A DNA stretch of 64,000 nucleotides, from assembly GCA_016707895.1 (NCBI GenBank), contig JADJGV010000002.1, forward strand, positions 463,695 to 527,694, given 5' to 3'. Positions within the stretch are counted from its first letter, which is position 1. Each line of letters opens with the position of its first letter. A model generated the notes under the pieces. That model did not search any database. It was given only the letters and a program-made list of their open reading frames with translations, and had not been told where the DNA came from. Made by a program: the position numbers and the translations under genes. Shown piece after piece: positions 7,968-17,480 of the stretch. The stretch comes from Myxococcales bacterium. Lineage in GTDB: Bacteria; Myxococcota_A; Polyangia; Haliangiales; Haliangiaceae.

Positions 7968-10166
7968 TCAGCGCCGCTGCCGCCAGTCGGGATCGCGCCA
8001 GGCCCGCCACAGCGACGGCTGGGCGAACAGGTTCCCTGGTAGGCCGCGCACGTAGGGGCGCTGCAGGCGCTTCTGCGTGTAGACGAACATCGGGATGATC
8101 GGCGCCTCGTCGACCAGGATCGCCTCGGCGGCGCGGACCTTGGCCAGCCGCGCGGCCGGGTCGGTCATCTGGGCCGCCTCGTCGAGCAGCGCGTCGAACG
8201 CCGGGTTGCACCAGGCCGGGCGGTTGTTGGGGCTGCCACAGCGCCAGATGCGCACGAACTCGACCTCGGGATCGGGCGCGGTGCCGATCCAGCCGAGCCG
8301 CGCCACCTGGTACTCGAGCTGCCGGGTGTCGTTCAGGAACACCTGCCACTCCTGCTGCTCGAGCCGCACGCCGATGTGCAGCACGTCCTGCCACTGCGCC
8401 TGGATGTACTCGCTGATCAGCTTGTGGGCCTCGAAGCCGATGTTGAACTTGTAGACGATCTCCTTCGGGAAGCGATCGCCCATCTCGGCCTTGGCCTGGG
8501 CCAGCTCGGCCCGCGCGCGCGCCGGATCGAACTCGAGGCCGGGCGGCGGCACGTAGCAGAGCTTGCCGCGCTCGATCACCAGCGCGACGCCGGGCGTCGA
8601 CCGCGTGACGCCGCACGCGCGCAGATCCTCGTCGGACAGGCTGGCGATCGGGGTGCCCGGCGTGTAGCTCGCGACGCCGATCTCGCCGCCGCGCAGGAAG
8701 CCGGCGATGCGCGAGCGATCGAGCGCCAGCGTCAGCGCCCGCCGCAGGTGGACGTTGTCGAAGCGCTTGGTGTTGACCACCGCGAAGTAGGTGCCCAGGT
8801 ACGGCGCGACGGTGTAGTCGCGGTACGGCTTGCCGTGGTTGCCGGTCGACAGCGCCGCCAGGTACGACTGCGGGATGTTGTTGGCGGCCAGCGCGTCGCA
8901 CACGCCGGTGAAGTAGAGGTTGGCGCTGGCCGCCTGCTCGTCGATCGACAGCACGGTCAGGCGGTCGAGCTTGACCTCGGCGGGGTCGCGGTAGGTCGGC
9001 GAGCGCACCAGCGTCAGGTGATCGCGCGGCGCGTGCTCGGCCAGCCGCATCGGCCCCGATGACACGATCGTCGCCGGCGCGGTCCAGGTGCGCGGGTGGC
9101 GCGACACCGCGGCGCGCGGGGTCGGCCGCATCGCCCGCGACGCGCCGGTCGCGACGATCGACGGCGTCGGATCGCTGGCCTCGACCACCAGCGTCTGGGC
9201 GTCGAGGACGCGGACGCCGAGCACCTCCGGGAGCATCAGCAGGTCGGCGTTGGTGACCTCGACCTCGGCGCGCGGGCGCGCGGCGTCGGCCTGCAGGTCG
9301 GCCCACGCGCCGTCGCGGCCGGGCACGTGCTTGGCGGCCACCGGCGCCACGCGCACGCGGTGCTCGGCGGTGGGCGCGCCGTCGAGCTCGTCGGCCGGCA
9401 CCCAGCCGTAGACGCCGAGGCCGTGATCCCAGTGGACGTAGGCCCAGGTCCGGGCGTCGGGGTTGGGCAGCGTCGCGGGGCGGCCGCTCAGCTCGATGAT
9501 CGTGACCGCGGCGCGGGGCGGCACGGTGGCGTAGGCGGCGCCCGCGTCGGCGCCGAGATCGCGCAGCCGCAGCGGGCGGCTCGCGGTGCGCTGGTTGGGA
9601 TCGGGCGGCGCGGCGTCGCCCCAGTCGGCCAGCGGCTTGCCGTCGACCGCGACGACCTCGACGATCGTGCCGGCCGGCAGCCCGCCGGCGTCGCGCACCA
9701 GCACCCGCGCGCGGTTCTCGAGGTACGCGAGGTTGTTCTTCAGCCAGTCGAGCGAGTCGGCGTTGACCGACGCCGTCAGCGGGTGCAGCACGCGCACGAG
9801 CTGGTAGGCGACGTCGTAGGCCGTGAGCGGGCGGCCGTCGCTCCACCGCGCCTCGGGCCGCAGGTGGAACGTCACCCGGCGCTGATCGGGCGCGACCTCC
9901 CACCGGCTGGCCAGCCCCGCGACCGGCAGGCCGTCGTCGCCGAACACCAGCAGGCCATCGAACAGCGCGTACATGATCGGCGTGACCGTCGTCGACTGGC
10001 CCTCGGCCGGGTCGAGGCTGTCGGGCTCGCCGCTGTTGCACCAGGTCAGCGTGTGCGGGTCGTCGACCGCGGGCACCTTGCCGAAGTACTCGCTGTCGGG
10101 CAGGCCGCAGCCGATGGCGGCGGCCGTAGCGAGCGCGGCGAGCGTGGTAAGGTGGCGGCGCGTCAT
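7968..10166 (-). CDS. ABC transporter substrate-binding lipoprotein, family 5 (peptide/nickel, OppA/DppA-like) with a large insertion
   Basis: ORF 7968..10268; internal start MTRRHLTTLAALATAAAIGC (lipobox). SBP_bac_5-like N- and C-terminal regions (...PDSLDPA..., ...YTQKRLQRPYVRGL...) flank about 250 aa of extra sequence. Confidence 0.8.
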   Translation of the reverse strand: MTRRHLTTLAALATAAAIGCGLPDSEYFGKVPAVDDPHTLTWCNSGEPDSLDPAEGQSTTVTPIMYALFDGLLVFGDDGLPVAGLASRWEVAPDQRRVTFHLRPEARWSDGRPLTAYDVAYQLVRVLHPLTASVNADSLDWLKNNLAYLENRARVLVRDAGGLPAGTIVEVVAVDGKPLADWGDAAPPDPNQRTASRPLRLRDLGADAGAAYATVPPRAAVTIIELSGRPATLPNPDARTWAYVHWDHGLGVYGWVPADELDGAPTAEHRVRVAPVAAKHVPGRDGAWADLQADAARPRAEVEVTNADLLMLPEVLGVRVLDAQTLVVEASDPTPSIVATGASRAMRPTPRAAVSRHPRTWTAPATIVSSGPMRLAEHAPRDHLTLVRSPTYRDPAEVKLDRLTVLSIDEQAASANLYFTGVCDALAANNIPQSYLAALSTGNHGKPYRDYTVAPYLGTYFAVVNTKRFDNVHLRRALTLALDRSRIAGFLRGGEIGVASYTPGTPIASLSDEDLRACGVTRSTPGVALVIERGKLCYVPPPGLEFDPARARAELAQAKAEMGDRFPKEIVYKFNIGFEAHKLISEYIQAQWQDVLHIGVRLEQQEWQVFLNDTRQLEYQVARLGWIGTAPDPEVEFVRIWRCGSPNNRPAWCNPAFDALLDEAAQMTDPAARLAKVRAAEAILVDEAPIIPMFVYTQKRLQRPYVRGLPGNLFAQPSLWRAWRDPDWRQRR

Positions 10167-10386
10167 GGACGAGTTTCGTTGTCCCCGCTGCGGGAGCTTC
10201 GCCGCCGAGCGCTCGGAGTCGCGGTTCGCGGCCTTCACCATGGTCGAGATGAACTGCCGCGGATGCAAGCTCTACGAGGAGCGACGCAGCGACGCCGCCG
10301 ACTTCGCCGCGTTCAAGGACCGCTGGCGGGGCCGGCCGCAGATCCCGATCTACGACTACTACGACGACCTGGTCGACGTCGACTGA
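10165..10386 (+). CDS. Small zinc-ribbon protein (73 aa)
   Basis: M65 of ORF 9973..10386: MDEFRCPRCGSF...MNCRGCKLYEE, a CxxC...CxxC motif. Stop overlaps the start of the next gene (TGATG). Confidence 0.5.
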   Translation: MDEFRCPRCGSFAAERSESRFAAFTMVEMNCRGCKLYEERRSDAADFAAFKDRWRGRPQIPIYDYYDDLVDVD

Positions 10387-11243
10387 TGCCCGCCGGCGAG
10401 CGAGGCGGCCGCGCGCAGGCCGTGGCGACGCTGGTCGCGGTGGGCCTCCTGTGGTCGACCGCCGGCGCGCTGATCAAGTACGTCACCTGGCCGCCGGCGG
10501 CGATCTGGGGGCTGCGCTCGGCGATCGCCGCCGCGGCGCTGATCGCGATCTACCGGCCGTCGTGGCGCGGCCTGACCCGCACCGAGTGGCTGTCGGCGGT
10601 GGCGCTGGCGGCGACCACCGGGCTGTTCGTGCTGGCCAACAAGTGGACCACCGCCGCCAACGCGATCTTGATCCAGTACTCGGCGCCGGCCTGGGCCGCG
10701 CTGCTGTCGGCGGTGATCCTGCACGAGCGGGCGTCCCGCATCGACTGGGTGACGATCGGCCTGGCGCTGTGCGGCGTCGCGCTGTTCTTCGTCGACCAGC
10801 TGTCGCTCGCGCACGTGCGCGGCAACGTCGTGGCGCTGGCGGCCGGCGTGATGTTCGCGACCAACGTCGTGCTCCTGCGCAAGATCGCCCGCGACCCGGA
10901 GGGCCGGGGCAGCGCGCTCAGAGCGATGATCCTCGGCCACGTGCTGGCGGCGGTGGCCGGCCTGCCGTTCGCGCTGACCGCGCCGGCGCTGCCGGCCAGC
11001 GGGTGGGGCGCGATGGTGGCGCTGGGGCTCCTGCAGCAGACCGCGCCGACGATCCTCTACGCGTGGGCGATCCGTCGGGTCACCGCCGTCGAGGGCCTGC
11101 TGATCCCGATCGTCGAGCCGATCGTCTCGCCGCTGTGGGTGTGGATCCTGTTCGCCGAGCGCCCCGGGGCGTGGGCGCTGGTCGGCGGCGCGGTGGTGGT
11201 GGCGGCGGTGACGCTGCGCGGGCTGGCGCCGTCGCGGGGCTGA
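10386..11243 (+). CDS. EamA/DMT-family transporter
   Basis: 285 aa with about 10 TM helices and two EamA-like halves; only this portion of ORF 9096..11243 is protein-like (upstream part is antisense to the SBP gene). Confidence 0.8.
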   Translation: MPAGERGGRAQAVATLVAVGLLWSTAGALIKYVTWPPAAIWGLRSAIAAAALIAIYRPSWRGLTRTEWLSAVALAATTGLFVLANKWTTAANAILIQYSAPAWAALLSAVILHERASRIDWVTIGLALCGVALFFVDQLSLAHVRGNVVALAAGVMFATNVVLLRKIARDPEGRGSALRAMILGHVLAAVAGLPFALTAPALPASGWGAMVALGLLQQTAPTILYAWAIRRVTAVEGLLIPIVEPIVSPLWVWILFAERPGAWALVGGAVVVAAVTLRGLAPSRG

Positions 11244-11267
11244 CCGCGATCGGGCTACACTGCGGGC

Positions 11268-12590
11268 GTGCGCCGCCTGGGTAACGCCGTCCACATCGTG
11301 TGGGTCGGCATCGTCGTCTTCTGGTTCCTCGTCGCCTACGGGCTGGTGCGGCTGGGGCTGCTGATCGGCCTGTGCTGGAGCGGCGCGCGCCGCCGCCGGG
11401 TGGTGGCGCGGTGGAACGGCTGGGCGCTGCGCACGCTGCTGGAGCTGCTCGGCGCGTCGTTCATCAAGATGGGCCAGGTGATGAGCACCCGGCCCGATCT
11501 GTTCGCGGCCGAGACCATCGCGCAGCTCAAGCACCTGCAGGACCGGCTGCCGGCGTTCGCCTTCGCCAAGGTGCGGCGGATCGTCGAGGAGGACACCGGC
11601 AAGCCGCTCGAGGACACCTACGCCGAGTTCGATCAGCAGCCGGTGGCGGCGGCGTCGGTGGCGCAGGTCCACCGCGCCCGCCTGCGCGACGGCCGCGAGG
11701 TCGCGGTCAAGGTGCTGCGGCCCAACGTGCGGCGCCAGGTCGAGCGCGACGCGTCGCTCTTGATGCTGGGGGCCAAGGTCATCGCGCTGCACCCGCGGCT
11801 CAAGCGCAGCGATCCCGTCGGCCACACCAAGCACTTCGTCGACGCGATCCACGACCAGACCGACCTGCGCATCGAGGCCACGAACTACCGCCGCTTCCAC
11901 GACAACTTCGCCAGCTGGACCACGGTGAAGTTCCCCGAGGTGCTGGCGCCGTCGACCGAGCGGATCCTGACGATGGAGTTCATCCGCGGCACCAAGATCG
12001 ACGCCCAGCCCGAGGCGCGCAAGCTGCCGCTGGCCGAGGTGGTGCGGCGGTGCATGTTCCAGATGTGCTTCGACGACGGCTTCCTGCACGCCGACATGCA
12101 CCCCGGCAACATGCTGGTCGACGACGAGGGCCGGCTGGTGCTGTTCGACGTCGGCCTGGCCAAGCACCTGCACGAGGACGTGCTGATCCAGTTCATCGAC
12201 ATGGGCAAGTGCCTGACGATGGGTACGCCCGGCGATCTGGTCGGGCACCTGCGCCGGTTCCACACGTACATGGGCGACGTCGACTGGGACGCGCTGTCCA
12301 AGGACGTCGAGGTGTTCGCGACCAAGTTCCGCGGCCAGAACGCCGCCGAGCTCGACTACGGCACGCTGTTCAACGAGATGTTCGCGATCGGGCGCCGCTA
12401 CCACGTGCGCCCGGTGACCGACATGACGCTGGTGCTGGTGGCGATGGTGACGTCGCAGGGCATCGGCCAGATGCTCGACCCGCACGTCGACGTGTTCGCC
12501 CACGTCGCGCGCCACCTGGTGCCGATCTTGATGAAGCGCAACGAGCGGGTGCCCGAGACCGCCGCGGCGCGCGCCGCCGCGGGGCAGTGA
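11268..12590 (+). CDS. ABC1/UbiB-family atypical protein kinase
   Basis: 440 aa; N-terminal TM helix, ABC1/ADCK signature region (...AAASVAQVHRARLRDGREVAVKVLRPNV...LHADMHPGNMLV...). Confidence 0.85.
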   Translation: MRRLGNAVHIVWVGIVVFWFLVAYGLVRLGLLIGLCWSGARRRRVVARWNGWALRTLLELLGASFIKMGQVMSTRPDLFAAETIAQLKHLQDRLPAFAFAKVRRIVEEDTGKPLEDTYAEFDQQPVAAASVAQVHRARLRDGREVAVKVLRPNVRRQVERDASLLMLGAKVIALHPRLKRSDPVGHTKHFVDAIHDQTDLRIEATNYRRFHDNFASWTTVKFPEVLAPSTERILTMEFIRGTKIDAQPEARKLPLAEVVRRCMFQMCFDDGFLHADMHPGNMLVDDEGRLVLFDVGLAKHLHEDVLIQFIDMGKCLTMGTPGDLVGHLRRFHTYMGDVDWDALSKDVEVFATKFRGQNAAELDYGTLFNEMFAIGRRYHVRPVTDMTLVLVAMVTSQGIGQMLDPHVDVFAHVARHLVPILMKRNERVPETAAARAAAGQ

Positions 12591-12602
12591 TACCGTCGGC
12601 GG

Positions 12603-13217
12603 ATGCAGCCGCCTGGTCCGCCTGGTCCGCCCGCTGGTCCGCCGCCGCCGGGGTATCCGCCGCCGGGGTATCCGCCGCCGGGGTATCCGCCGCCGCCGCC
12701 GGGGTACGGCTATCCGCCGCCGCCGCGCAAGGCTTCCCTGCTGTGGCTCTGGATCCTGCTCGGCGTTCTCGGCGGGCTGATGGTGGTCGGCATCCTGGCC
12801 GCGATCGCGATCCCGTCGTTCATGAAGTACCAGCAGAAGTCGAAGCGTAGCGAGGCCGAGCTCAACCTCAACGCCATCGAGAAGGCGGCGAACATGGTCT
12901 ACGCCGAGACCGCCGCGTTCCCGCCCGGCACGGCGGGGCGGACGCCCGCGACGTCGTGCTGCGCCGACCCGACGCGGCGGTGCCAGCCCGATCCGATCGC
13001 GTGGCAGGGCGAGCCGTGGGCCACGCTCGACTTCGAGATGGTCTCGCCGCACTTCTTCCAGTATACGTACGCCGGCGCCGCCGACGGTCAGAGCTTCACG
13101 GCGACGGCGATCGGGGACCTCGACTGCGACGGCAACGAGGTCGTCTACACGCTGGTCGGGCGCGTCGTCGGGGGCAGCCCGTCGTTCGAGCTGGTGCCGC
13201 CCACCGGCCGGGACTGA
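12603..13217 (+). CDS. Pilin-like bitopic membrane protein with PPGY-rich N-terminal tail (paralog 1 of 3)
   Basis: N-terminus MQPPGPPGPP...GYPPPGYPPPGYPPPPPGYGYPPPPRK, TM LLWLWILLGVLGGLMVVGILAAIAIPSF, which matches the type IV pilin alpha1 core (ILAAIAIPxF) but lacks the G|F(T/S)LIE prepilin-peptidase site. Cys pairs CC..C and DLDCDG. Confidence 0.75.
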   Translation: MQPPGPPGPPAGPPPPGYPPPGYPPPGYPPPPPGYGYPPPPRKASLLWLWILLGVLGGLMVVGILAAIAIPSFMKYQQKSKRSEAELNLNAIEKAANMVYAETAAFPPGTAGRTPATSCCADPTRRCQPDPIAWQGEPWATLDFEMVSPHFFQYTYAGAADGQSFTATAIGDLDCDGNEVVYTLVGRVVGGSPSFELVPPTGRD

Positions 13218-13250
13218 GCCGCGCCGCGGGCGCGATGTTACGCTCGCGCG

Positions 13251-13853
13251 ATGCAGCCACCTCCTCCAGGCGCGCCGCCGGGCGGCTATCCACCGCCGGG
13301 CTATCCACCGCCGGGGTATCCGCCGCCGCCGGGCTACGGCTATCCGCCGCCGCCCCGGAAGCGGTCGCTCTTGTGGCTGTGGATCGTGCTCGGCGTGGTC
13401 GGCGCCGGCCTGGTGATGGTCGCGATCCTGGCGGCGGTCGTGGTGCCCAAGGCCGACGAGTACGTGGAGCGGTCCAAGCGCATCGAGGCCGAGCTCAACC
13501 TCCACGCGATCGGCAGGGGCGCGAAGGTCGGCTACGAGGAGACCGGCCGCTTCCCCGAGGGCGACGCCGCGTTGACGCCGGCCGCCTCGTGCTGCGAGGG
13601 GCCGAACCACAAGTGCGCGCCCGACCCGGCGCTGTGGCGCGGCGAGCCGTGGGAGTCGATGTACTTCGAGATGAACCGGCCGCACTACTTCCGGTACTCG
13701 TACCGCGCGTCGGCCGACGGCCAGAGCTTCACCGCCACCGCCGTGGGCGACCTCGACTGCGACGGCGAGGAGGTGGTGTTCACGGTCACCGGCACCGCCG
13801 TCGGCGGCAATCCGGAGCTGTCGGAGGTCGTGCGGCCGACCAACCGCGACTGA
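13251..13853 (+). CDS. Pilin-like bitopic membrane protein with PPGY-rich N-terminal tail (paralog 2 of 3)
   Basis: 200 aa with the same architecture (PPGYPPPGYPPPGYPPPPGYGYPPPP, LLWLWIVLGVVGAGLVMVAILAAVVVP, ASCCEGPNHKCAPDPALW, DLDCDGEE). Confidence 0.75.
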   Translation: MQPPPPGAPPGGYPPPGYPPPGYPPPPGYGYPPPPRKRSLLWLWIVLGVVGAGLVMVAILAAVVVPKADEYVERSKRIEAELNLHAIGRGAKVGYEETGRFPEGDAALTPAASCCEGPNHKCAPDPALWRGEPWESMYFEMNRPHYFRYSYRASADGQSFTATAVGDLDCDGEEVVFTVTGTAVGGNPELSEVVRPTNRD

Positions 13854-13885
13854 GCCGGCGGCGGGCCGCGTGGTAGCGTTCGCGC

Positions 13886-14464
13886 GTGCAGCCAGGGCCG
13901 CCACCGTCGCCGTCGGGGTATCCGCCACCGGGCTACTACCCGGGGTATCCGCCGCCCGGCGGTCCGCCGCGACGGTCGTCGCTGCTGTGGCTGTGGATCA
14001 CGCTGGGCGTCGTCGGCGCGGTGGCCGTGATCGGCGTGCTGGCCGCGATCGCGATCCCGTCGTTCGTCAACTACCAGCGCAAGGCCAAGGCCGTCGAGGC
14101 CGAGCTCGAGCTGCGGCGGATCGGCCACGCGGCGATCATGTACTTCGACGAGCACGGCCGGTTCCCCGCGGCCGCGGCCGGCCCGACGCCGGCGACGCCG
14201 TGCTGCGCCGGACCTGACCACAAGTGCGCGTCGGTCATCGACGACTGGGCCGCCGAGCCGTGGCGGACCCTCGGCGTCACGATGCTCGAGCCGCACCGCT
14301 ACCAGTACACGTTCACGCCGGGCGCCGATGGCAGCTCGTTCACGGCGACGGCGATCGGCGACCTCGACTGCGACGGCGACGCGTCGGTGTTCACGCTGAC
14401 CGGCACCGCGGTCGGCGGGGCGGCCCGGCTCGACGAGGTGGTCCGGCCCGCGCACATCGACTGA
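13886..14464 (+). CDS. Pilin-like bitopic membrane protein with PPGY-rich N-terminal tail (paralog 3 of 3)
   Basis: 192 aa; GTG start. PSGYPPPGYYPGYPPPGGPP, LLWLWITLGVVGAVAVIGVLAAIAIPSF, ATPCCAGPDHKCASVIDDW, DLDCDGDASV. Confidence 0.75.
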   Translation: MQPGPPPSPSGYPPPGYYPGYPPPGGPPRRSSLLWLWITLGVVGAVAVIGVLAAIAIPSFVNYQRKAKAVEAELELRRIGHAAIMYFDEHGRFPAAAAGPTPATPCCAGPDHKCASVIDDWAAEPWRTLGVTMLEPHRYQYTFTPGADGSSFTATAIGDLDCDGDASVFTLTGTAVGGAARLDEVVRPAHID

Positions 14465-14530
14465 GCGCGACAGGTGCGACCGGCCGCGACGGCTTGACGC
14501 CGACCCGGCCGGGCCGCTAAGCCCGACGGC

Positions 14531-16594
<2,064 letters not shown>

Positions 16595-16620
16595 TATCGC
16601 TCGCGAATTCGCTCGCCGTG

Positions 16621-16640
16621 CGTCGCAGGAAGGGACACTT
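16621..16640. repeat. REP-like inverted repeat copy 1 (ggAAGGGACACTTTCCcacg)
   Basis: Reverse complement of the copy at 17414-17433; lies just outside the tnpA_REP stop. Confidence 0.7.
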
Positions 16641-16663
16641 TCCCACGCCGTAGCGCGGCGAAA

Positions 16664-17338
16664 CTACTCCGCTTTTGGGAGCCAAAGCGGCTCCCCGTCC
16701 CGCGCGGAGGTCCCGTCCGGCCGCTCCACGCGAAGCCGATAGCGCGGGGCTCGAGCGGAGCCTGGCTCCGTGCTGCTCGCTCGCACGTGCGCGGCGACCG
16801 TTTCGCAGTAGCGCGTCGCGCGCTCAGCGGTCGTCGCGCCCAGCGCGAGGTACCACGCGCTCGGGGTCCACAGGTCGCGCGGGACCATCGACGTGCGCCC
16901 GGCGTGCAGCGGTCCCGTGGACCAGAGGTGGCCGAGCGGGTCGGTGACGACGCCAGCACGATACGCGTTGACGTCGTTGTAGATGGTCGCCGTCGCCAGG
17001 TAGGCGTCGTCGAGGATCGGCTTGGAGTGAAACCGCTCCTCGAACAACTTGCCGGTGGCGTCGCGCGCGTGGTTGCGGACCTGAGCGTAGCGAAGGCAGG
17101 TCCGATGGATCAATACGCGCAACGCATCGGGGCCGGGCGGGACCGCGATCATGTGCACGTGGTTCTCCATCAGCGTGAGCTGATGCAGGCGGCTCGCGCT
17201 CGTCTCCAGGCCACGTGCCAGGCATCCGATGAAGCGCGTGCGATCGGCGTTCGTCGAGAACAGGCGACGACGGTTGTTGCCGCGCAGGTAGATGTGATGA
17301 GGGACGTTGGGGATCACCAGGCGCGCTTGTCGGGGCAT
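16664..17338 (-). CDS. REP-associated tyrosine transposase (RAYT; IS200/IS605-like Y1 HUH transposase)
   Basis: Internal start M39 of ORF 16664..17452 (MPRQARLVIPNVPHHIYLRGNNRRRLF...), HUH motif HVHMIAV, catalytic Tyr region ATIYNDVNAYRAG. Confidence 0.75.
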   Translation of the reverse strand: MPRQARLVIPNVPHHIYLRGNNRRRLFSTNADRTRFIGCLARGLETSASRLHQLTLMENHVHMIAVPPGPDALRVLIHRTCLRYAQVRNHARDATGKLFEERFHSKPILDDAYLATATIYNDVNAYRAGVVTDPLGHLWSTGPLHAGRTSMVPRDLWTPSAWYLALGATTAERATRYCETVAAHVRASSTEPGSARAPRYRLRVERPDGTSARDGEPLWLPKAE

Positions 17339-17413
17339 GACGCGGGTTTCGGCCGCTTGCATCTGCGGTTGCCATTCGCGCGAGAAGCTCTGGAACCCAG
17401 TGATCTTAGGAGC

Positions 17414-17433
17414 TTGGCTGGATGGAAAGTGTC
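17414..17433. repeat. REP-like inverted repeat copy 2 (gatGGAAAGTGTCCCTTTtc)
   Basis: 14-nt core is the exact reverse complement of 16623-16636; lies upstream of the tnpA_REP start. Confidence 0.7.
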
Positions 17434-17480
17434 CCTTTTCGGAACGCAACACGCCAAAAAAACGTAGCGATCGTCTGATC

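Follow-up and report, generated by a model that had tools for sequence, protein, structure and literature searches.

Type IV pilins are defined by their N-terminus, where the class III signal and the first half of the long N-terminal helix (alpha1-N) are invariant, while the head is variable. What, then, are proteins that resemble pilins in the head and in the second half of that helix and begin with something else altogether? This question is raised by three tandem paralogous genes, here called A, B and C, in a 64,000-nt stretch (hereafter the window; G+C content about 72%) of contig JADJGV010000002.1 from a Myxococcales bacterium. A sequence-only reading of the window had described their products as membrane-anchored, pilin-like proteins that cannot be processed into a fibre. 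Our best overall explanation, which we hold with a probability of about 0.68, is that A, B and C are membrane-anchored, non-polymerising chimeric descendants of the major type IVa pilin (PilA family) of this lineage.

Architecture and relation to type IV pilins

The three genes and the parts of their products that matter for this question are the following:
12603-13217, + strand: paralog A, 204 amino acids (aa), a PilA-derived chimera; 12-nt gap after the UbiB gene
12603-12731, + strand: Pro/Gly/Tyr-rich N-terminal tail of A, aa 1-43, with four PPGY motifs, ending in R42-K43, predicted to be cytoplasmic
12642-12695, + strand: perfect 15-bp tandem repeat CCGCCGCCGGGGTAT, 3.6 copies, coding for the PPPGY units in the tail of A (Tandem Repeats Finder, TRF, 100% matches)
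12732-12821, + strand: single hydrophobic helix of A, aa ~44-73, from the hydropathy peak, the pilin register and the model
12822-13214, + strand: amphipathic second part of the helix (alpha1-C) of A (KYQQKSKRSEAELNLNAIEKA...) and beta-sheet head with C119, C120, C127 and C175
13116-13133, + strand: DLDCDG loop of A, aa 172-177
13251-13853, + strand: paralog B, 200 aa, same architecture as A; 33-nt gap after A
13284-13328, + strand: 15-bp tandem repeat GGCTATCCACCGCCG, 3.0 copies, in the tail of B (TRF, 93% matches)
13886-14464, + strand: paralog C, 192 aa, GTG start, same architecture as A; 32-nt gap after B

In an alignment of the three, A, B and C show pairwise identities of 60-65% and share a Pro/Gly/Tyr (PGY) tail, an RK/RR pair, one long hydrophobic helix, a four-Cys domain and a GDLDCDG loop, with the SLLWLWI.LGV segment, the four Cys and GDLDCDG being invariant among them. 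A is identical to P0001, a hypothetical protein of a Myxococcales metagenome-assembled genome (MAG). The hydropathy profile has one peak (residues 43-76 in A), formed by a hydrophobic stretch of about 28-30 residues that is preceded by RK/RR. The first half of the helix of A (SLLWLWILLGVLGGLMVV) stands in place of the pilin leader and alpha1-N, and its second half, GILAAIAIPSF, corresponds to pilin G14-P22 onward. The motifs that had been described as common to all three are shared unevenly: the alpha1 motif is intact in A as ILAAIAIPSF and in C as VLAAIAIPSF and degraded to ILAAVVVPKA in B, together with the P22 context, while PPGY is repeated in A (four copies) and B (three) and occurs once in C, which additionally has SGY and PGY. 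Orthologs of the B type have AFLAGS or AYMAGD at the AIAIPSF position; those of the C type are P0025, P0027, P0028, L003_9267 and L008_8591.

The pilin likeness greatly exceeds chance and is borne out by several lines of evidence. A homology search with A returned 143 database relatives, among them canonical prepilins of 166-171 aa with PF07963 and a classical N-terminus cut after RG. With such prepilins from related Kofleriaceae/Haliangiales MAGs (P0043-P0070), A shares 45-50% identity over ~75% of its length (E 1e-36 to 1e-40), and the matching region runs from pilin G14 to the C-terminus, thus comprising the C-terminal half of the helix and the whole head. The gene of one of these prepilins, P0062, comes immediately after that of a PilR-like sigma54 response regulator and has another pilin gene and an ABC transporter in its vicinity; this is a pilA-type locus. 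When the family profile was compared with the PDB, alpha1 of Myxococcus xanthus PilA was the best match (E 6e-16; PDB 8tj2), and GILAAIAIPSF...KRSEAELNLNAIEKA aligns with PilA alpha1 positions about 14-58. The AlphaFold2 (AF2) model of A has a predicted local distance difference test score (pLDDT) of 89.8 and places helix 47-103 against a beta-sheet of strands 109-114, 153-158, 164-171, 180-189 and 192-198; the predicted head is thus a pilin alpha-beta roll, an antiparallel sheet on alpha1-C that would be stabilised by disulfides. Pfam and NCBIfam returned nothing above cut-off for A, B or C. Below threshold, Pfam gave ComP_DUS (19 bits against a cut-off of 27.3), and NCBIfam gave PilA_Myxo (39.7 against 400, aligned to profile positions about 20-70) and GspG (TIGR01710; 32.5 bits against 88.85).

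The Cys, Trp and GDLDCDG columns are near-invariant across the family, with two Trp residues being invariant. In A, D172-L-D-C-D-G177 lies between strands 164-171 and 180-189 and fits the DxDxDG pattern of calcium-binding loops. This loop is nearly invariant in 85 family members, canonical pilins included, and the head is probably Ca2+-binding through it.

The likeness stops where the defining part of a pilin would begin. With the register of A set from P22 backwards, position -1 is Leu, position +1 is a near-invariant Trp, and Glu+5 is replaced by Gly (G54 in A; Gly in 31 of the 34 PGY-type sequences). The small-xxx-small motif G54xxxG/A58 hints at pairing between helices. Gly-1, Phe+1 and Glu+5 are absent from all three proteins, their helices hold no acidic residue, and the hydrophobic stretch starts five residues earlier than in a mature pilin, straight after RK. 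No coding frame of the 64-kb window, those of A, B and C included, contains the prepilin motif G[FMLIVWY][TSA]xxE, and G[FM]xxxE is absent throughout A, B and C, which bears out the earlier statement that the prepilin-peptidase site is missing. In the systems studied, Gly-1 is needed for cleavage by PilD and Glu5 for assembly. A, B and C are thus PilA-derived chimeras rather than prepilins. They would not be fibre subunits, because Gly-1 and Glu5 are absent and extraction would require 45 residues of cytoplasmic tail to pass through the membrane. An N-in/C-out topology is predicted because RK/RR lies N-terminal of the helix, in keeping with the positive-inside rule, and the four conserved Cys lie C-terminal of it, as expected of an oxidising compartment. 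The single hydropathy peak after RK/RR and the missing processing site also support the view that these proteins are membrane-anchored and probably cannot be processed.

Could A, B and C instead be true prepilins with a very long leader, processed non-canonically by PilD or another peptidase and serving as minor or terminal filament subunits? Their head and alpha1-C are close to those of fibre-forming relatives, tandem arrays of two or three genes are also typical of canonical pilins of the family (L036, L039, L044 and L058), and a second PilA of M. xanthus has an extended N-terminus upstream of a PilD site (PMC6060248). However, A, B and C have neither a Gly-Phe/Met junction nor an acidic residue in the helix, the position of Glu5 is taken by a near-invariant Gly, and the leader would have to be 45-50 residues long and conserved. 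We regard this explanation as highly improbable.

What has been retained is pilin G14 onward: the second half of alpha1, the amphipathic alpha1-C, the four-Cys beta-sheet head and the DxDxDG-type loop, a part whose homology to genuine prepilins is clear. The class III leader and alpha1-N have been swapped for a Pro/Gly/Tyr tail of 30-43 residues, a basic pair and the conserved SLLWLWILLGV.G. By topology rules, the products would insert as bitopic N-in/C-out inner-membrane proteins, with the tail in the cytoplasm and the disulfide-bonded head presumably facing the periplasm. Given what pilin processing is known to require, cleavage and methylation by PilD and extraction into a fibre would be impossible. 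More speculatively, the architecture of the family and its rates suggest that the most likely role of the tethered head is to bind a variable partner in the periplasm or envelope, be it the cell's own pilins, the pilus machine or a glycan; the head of M. xanthus PilA binds glucosamine of exopolysaccharide through an aromatic residue (PMC12691611).

The conserved proline-rich tail might, again speculatively, be a docking site or a spacer for a cytoplasmic partner. In the AF2 model, the tail of A has no regular secondary structure (pLDDT 59-75). Its PPxY motifs lie in the segment predicted to be cytoplasmic, their exposure following from the RK/RR that precedes the helix. The PPGY copies reported earlier are present, while the role as WW ligands then suggested for them found no support in the literature. 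The one bacterial precedent retrieved for the recognition of a cytoplasmic proline-rich sequence is the GYF domain of M. xanthus GltJ, which binds that of AglZ (PMC11135422).

Evolutionary rates, the conserved tail and the fast head

Ratios of nonsynonymous to synonymous substitution rates (dN/dS) were calculated by the Nei-Gojobori method (NG86) against the orthologs in loci L003, L008, L001, L005 and L013. No segment reaches 1, the values being 0-0.29 for the tail, 0.4-0.8 for the helix and 0.2-0.7 for the head. Across about 35 clusters, both MQP as the start and the composition of the tail are conserved, and these features argue that the tail is probably translated and matters. The in-frame 15-bp repeats imply that the length of the tail varies by slippage.

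The G+C content at third codon positions (GC3) is 0.96-0.99 in the transmembrane and head parts, like in the EamA, UbiB and S9 peptidase genes that flank the triplet. In the tail-coding segments (12603-12731, 13251-13364 and 13886-13975), it is only 0.73-0.76, because Tyr is encoded by TAT rather than TAC and some Pro residues by CCA within the 15-bp repeats. This difference suggests that the tail either expanded recently by slippage or is of foreign origin.

The conservation of the tail bears on another explanation, namely that the N-terminal part is a Sec signal peptide in which signal peptidase I cuts after AIA of ILAAIA/IP and frees a soluble head, the PGY tail being a long n-region. There is an AxA motif at the periplasmic end of the helix in A (A67-I68-A69) and in C, and relatives that carry the head without a membrane helix, as small lipoproteins, imply that a free or lipid-tethered head is viable. 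Nevertheless, the hydrophobic stretch of ~28 residues is far beyond a typical h-region, B and its orthologs lack AxA (AVVVPKA, AFLAGS), and the tail and SLLWLWILLGV are strongly conserved, which would be unexpected for a discarded leader. Moreover, canonical prepilins share AIAIP, and they are not known to be substrates of signal peptidase I. A cleaved, soluble head is thus decidedly unlikely.

Compared with the neighbouring genes, the triplet evolves fast. Between the window and L003, the EamA, UbiB and S9 proteins are 97-99% identical (dN 0.007-0.013; dN/dS 0.05-0.15), whereas the amino-acid identity is 88% for A, 72% for B and 88% for C (dN 0.074-0.209; dN/dS 0.31-0.68), with dS being 2-3 times higher than in the neighbours. 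The triplet thus evolves 6-20 times faster than they do; the changes fall mostly in the head, and B is the fastest. Against both L003 and L008, the segment 12603-14464 appears as a hypervariable island between conserved flanks, and its higher dS and divergence may reflect recombination or allele replacement. Rapid change in the head, with Cys, Trp and GDLDCDG as its invariant scaffold, is a pattern typical for pilins and for other proteins with variable partners, and a partly relaxed constraint is also compatible with it.

Carried further, relaxed constraint would make A, B and C decaying pilin duplicates on their way to pseudogenes. The high dN and dN/dS values of 0.3-0.7, the degraded alpha1 motif of B and the turnover of copy number among genomes would fit such decay. 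Against it, the reading frames are intact and of constant length in dozens of independent assemblies, the Cys, Trp and GDLDCDG positions have stayed near-invariant, GC3 is as high as in the housekeeping neighbours, each of the A-, B- and C-type lineages persists in several genomes, and dN/dS against the orthologs is below 1 in all segments. Decay appears extremely improbable to us.

Several observations weigh against the chimera explanation itself or soften the evidence for it. No pil genes lie within the syntenic 8 kb on either side, the 64-kb window holds no canonical pilin, and the analysis revealed neither a ligand, nor a cytoplasmic partner, nor a connection with a type IV pilus machine. 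The head dN/dS of 0.3-0.7 could reflect relaxed constraint rather than partner-driven change, NG86 being a crude estimator at 99% GC3, and the low dN of the tail may partly stem from homogenisation of the perfect 15-bp repeats. Finally, all sequences come from uncultured MAGs, and topology, disulfides and Ca2+ binding are deduced from sequence only.

The pilin head in other proteins

The pilin-like head is by no means confined to this triplet. A scan of GTDB genomes with AxGDLDCD[GN] yielded at least 332 relatives. The 78 loci kept all belong to Myxococcota-type MAGs, most of which bear the label Kofleriaceae, Haliangiales or Myxococcales, and a few only Deltaproteobacteria or Proteobacteria. 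In a profile search of 1.84 billion cluster representatives (50%-identity clusters), 292 matched at E<=1e-30 and 2623 at E<=1e-10; regular-expression classification found a class III signal in only 15 of the 142 best new representatives. Besides the class III signal, often in tandem arrays of two or three genes, the N-termini that precede the head include the PGY tail with a transmembrane segment, DUF4190 with a transmembrane segment, and a Zn-ribbon with a transmembrane segment. The head also occurs behind small lipoprotein domains without a hydrophobic helix, at the end of a conserved lipoprotein-type family of ~640 aa, and in four tandem copies in a 1099-aa protein that ends in a sorting-signal-like helix (IPTLGEWALILLALALVAIAVRRLRAG). 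Several of these architectures can be found within single MAGs (L029 and L038 in JADJJK01; L026, L032 and L073 in CAZRSQ01).

In the small lipoproteins, a four-Cys helical domain of ~85 residues replaces the whole hydrophobic helix before the head; these and the 1099-aa protein are represented by L084:7743-8393, L086:6916-7578, L052:8939-9616, P0157 and P0216. The ~640-aa family also has head-less versions of 505-565 aa (P0353, P0347, P0352, P0363, P0367, P0355, P0368 and P0350), which stop just past the pilin-derived segment and then have a short Pro-rich or charged tail; in these proteins, what is left of pilin alpha1 seems to act as a membrane segment at the C-terminus.

Across these architectures, the head looks like an autonomous, re-used periplasmic module, and it is mainly because of this behaviour that we propose a binding function independent of the fibre. 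The same was not seen for the other end of the protein: the N-terminal 63 residues alone (the tail and the first half of the helix), used as a query, gave no match at E<=0.001. The idea that the tail and the transmembrane half move as one module and also precede other ectodomains therefore has behind it only weak, tail-driven matches (P0109-P0120, with tRNA_anti-like and Mycobact_memb ectodomains).

By descent, A, B and C belong to the pilin superfamily, yet they fail its defining N-terminal prepilin features. With PilA they share the helix GILAA(I/V)AIP(S/A)F...KRSEAELNLNAI, four Cys, GDLDCDG and the predicted alpha-beta roll, and both occur in tandem arrays. They differ from it in lacking the class III signal, in having SLLWLWILLGV.G, after a Pro/Gly/Tyr tail, in place of alpha1-N, and in not lying beside pilR/pilS or other pil genes. 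The likeness to GspG of type II secretion systems consists of a weak alignment that spans helix and head (residues 52-171 of A against profile positions 5-116 of 134) and of the name PulG given to relatives by JGI; the match is below cut-off, A, B and C have no prepilin site, and no type II secretion genes lie nearby.

Other systems offer partial parallels to this architecture. Archaeal FlaF has an archaellin domain and no class III signal and sits in the membrane as a monotopic protein (PMC4425475). Like FlaF and FlaG (ArlF/ArlG), the triplet proteins would combine a subunit-like domain lacking a class III signal with an uncleaved N-terminal helix and stay outside the filament, which is an analogy and not homology. 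Unlike them, FlaF/FlaG have the beta-sandwich archaellin fold and an unrelated sequence, FlaF has no proline-rich cytoplasmic tail, and both are encoded in the archaellum operon and essential for assembly, whereas the triplet lies in a Zn-ribbon/EamA/UbiB/S9 context and not in a pilus operon. In Geobacter, GSU1497 (PilA-C) is a pilin head split from the class III signal and alpha1-N and exported by its own signal peptide (PMC5174107). It resembles the triplet in being a pilin head made as a separate periplasmic protein, but it arose by gene fission and adjoins and works with the alpha1-only GSU1496; the triplet proteins keep alpha1-C and half of the membrane helix, have gained an N-terminal module and have no adjacent alpha1-only partner. 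Modular pilins such as PilB of Streptococcus sanguinis (PMC8179133) likewise combine the pilin scaffold with other modules and show that pilins are modular in evolution. There, however, the module is attached at the C-terminus of a protein that retains its class III signal and still polymerises, whereas in the triplet the N-terminus is exchanged and polymerisation apparently lost.

The earlier claim that these proteins are undescribed appears to hold, as no curated family matches them and no published description of PGY-tailed pilin-like proteins was found in the literature. Relatives are called PulG/PilA-like by COG in JGI pipelines and hypothetical by NCBI, and a survey of myxobacterial PilA and type IV pili removed homologs 'with the extended N-terminal' prior to analysis (PMC6060248). 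The family inverts the usual pilin rule in that the head and alpha1-C are kept and the defining N-terminus is exchanged repeatedly for different anchors. If our explanation is true, a pilin head can live independently as a periplasmic or envelope binding domain, and these proteins would be natural 'non-polymerisable pilins', useful for separating membrane-pool roles (sensing, regulation and ligand binding) from fibre roles. Pilin finders that rely on N-terminal motifs would then miss a sizeable family, most of the best-scoring among the 292 representatives having no class III signal. The architecture and its radiation should appeal to pilus biologists; the organisms are uncultured.

A bolder version of this explanation, which we consider unlikely, would have the PilA head domesticated in Haliangiales/Kofleriaceae as a general periplasmic or surface recognition domain with at least six kinds of anchor. 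The PGY triplet would then be a new type of single-pass trans-membrane adaptor whose hypervariable head senses the cell's retracted pilins, the pilus base or exopolysaccharide in the periplasm and whose conserved poly-PPGY tail signals to cytoplasmic GYF-type readers, thereby linking the status of pili or matrix to intracellular signalling.

Gene neighbourhood and copy number

The triplet follows three co-oriented genes and is itself followed by a peptidase gene:
10165-10386, + strand: four-Cys Zn-ribbon protein, 73 aa, first of the co-oriented run (CPRC...CRGC; Zn-ribbon matches sub-threshold only)
10386-11243, + strand: EamA-family (drug/metabolite transporter, DMT) transporter (Pfam PF00892, E 4.7e-25)
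11268-12590, + strand: UbiB/ABC1 atypical kinase-like protein, GTG start (Pfam PF03109, E 5.5e-62)
14531-16594, + strand: secreted S9 peptidase with Tricorn-like and PD40 beta-propeller N-domains and signal peptide MSIFRFAPLALLLAAAPAVAG

The open reading frame (ORF) list and direct reads of the sequence confirmed this run on the forward strand, and the order, spacings and three paralogs given by the sequence-only reading stand with one correction: the EamA gene starts with an ATG that shares 1 nt with the Zn-ribbon stop (TGATG), and the gap given as 0 nt is accordingly -1. The gap between the EamA and UbiB/ABC1 genes is 24 nt. With TIGR01982, the UbiB/ABC1 protein scores 300.7 bits, under the cut-off of 487.55. 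Long antisense or out-of-frame ORFs at 10359-13928 (-; 1189 aa), 13685-16558 (-) and 9096-11243 (+) were dismissed as artefacts of the 72% G+C content because the plus-strand frames have a GC3 of 0.96-0.99. Co-transcription of the triplet with the Zn-ribbon, EamA and UbiB genes is plausible because of the 12-nt gap.

Coupling of the triplet to an atypical kinase had been put forward earlier, and a stronger form of this idea would make A, B and C part of a functional module with the Zn-ribbon, EamA and UbiB proteins, e.g. by serving in the periplasm as adaptors for a system of export or lipid/quinone handling under the ABC1 kinase. The co-oriented genes are indeed tightly spaced (-1, 24 and 12 nt), and the order of substrate-binding protein and OppBC genes (on the minus strand), Zn-ribbon, EamA, UbiB, one to three pilin-like genes and S9 recurs in L001, L003, L005-L008 and L012-L014. 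The Zn-ribbon gene is kept at the same position in L001, L003, L005, L008, L014, L090 and L092, and L090 retains the Zn-ribbon-EamA-UbiB-pilin-like order in front of different downstream genes. However, the recurring loci are one lineage, with 80-97% identical UbiB proteins and syntenic flanks that include the divergent Opp genes, and so do not constitute independent evidence. In L092, the order is Zn-ribbon, EamA, pilin-like and S9, with UbiB absent; in L091 (P0051), the pilin-like gene lies amid HEAT-repeat and MoxR genes; and neither UbiB nor EamA occurs close to the ~70 family loci that are more distant. Functional coupling to UbiB was thus rejected as a general feature, the arrangement being limited to one related clade, and a module of this kind is quite improbable. 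In terms of the chimera explanation, the Zn-ribbon, EamA and UbiB genes would probably be co-transcribed neighbours rather than mechanistic partners.

The triplication noted earlier is real in the window, but it is not fixed: pilin-like genes number one in L001, L005, L014, L090 and L092 and three in the window, L003 and L008, in keeping with lineage-specific tandem duplication and turnover. L008 (7369-9166) holds two B-type copies and no A-type copy, its first copy being a second B-type gene (..ILAYMAGDAVSEY..). In a rough neighbour-joining tree, the A-, B- and C-type sequences form clades, each with orthologs in several assemblies. This suggests that the N-terminus was swapped once and that tandem duplication and turnover between genomes came afterwards, by which the three copies here would have arisen.

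A promoter and terminator scan of 9800-16800 gave no promoter-like site and nothing useful between the genes; the two terminator-like sites both lie inside the EamA gene, at chance level. The S9 peptidase gene 3′ of the triplet is syntenic in most close relatives and absent in L090, with no functional link evident. Downstream of it, a 262-aa ORF (16664-17452, -) resembles the Y1 (IS200/REP-associated) transposase-like gene (PF01797, weak) at the same place in L001; the genes that L003 and L008 have at that position code for 217 and 239 aa and have no Pfam match on record. Within the triplet, the spacers 5′ of B (13230-13250) and C (13866-13885) have no recognisable Shine-Dalgarno sequence and end alike, in GTTACGCTCGCGCG before ATG and GTAGCGTTCGCGC before GTG, which may mean that the context for translation initiation was duplicated or simply that the spacers belong to the duplication unit.

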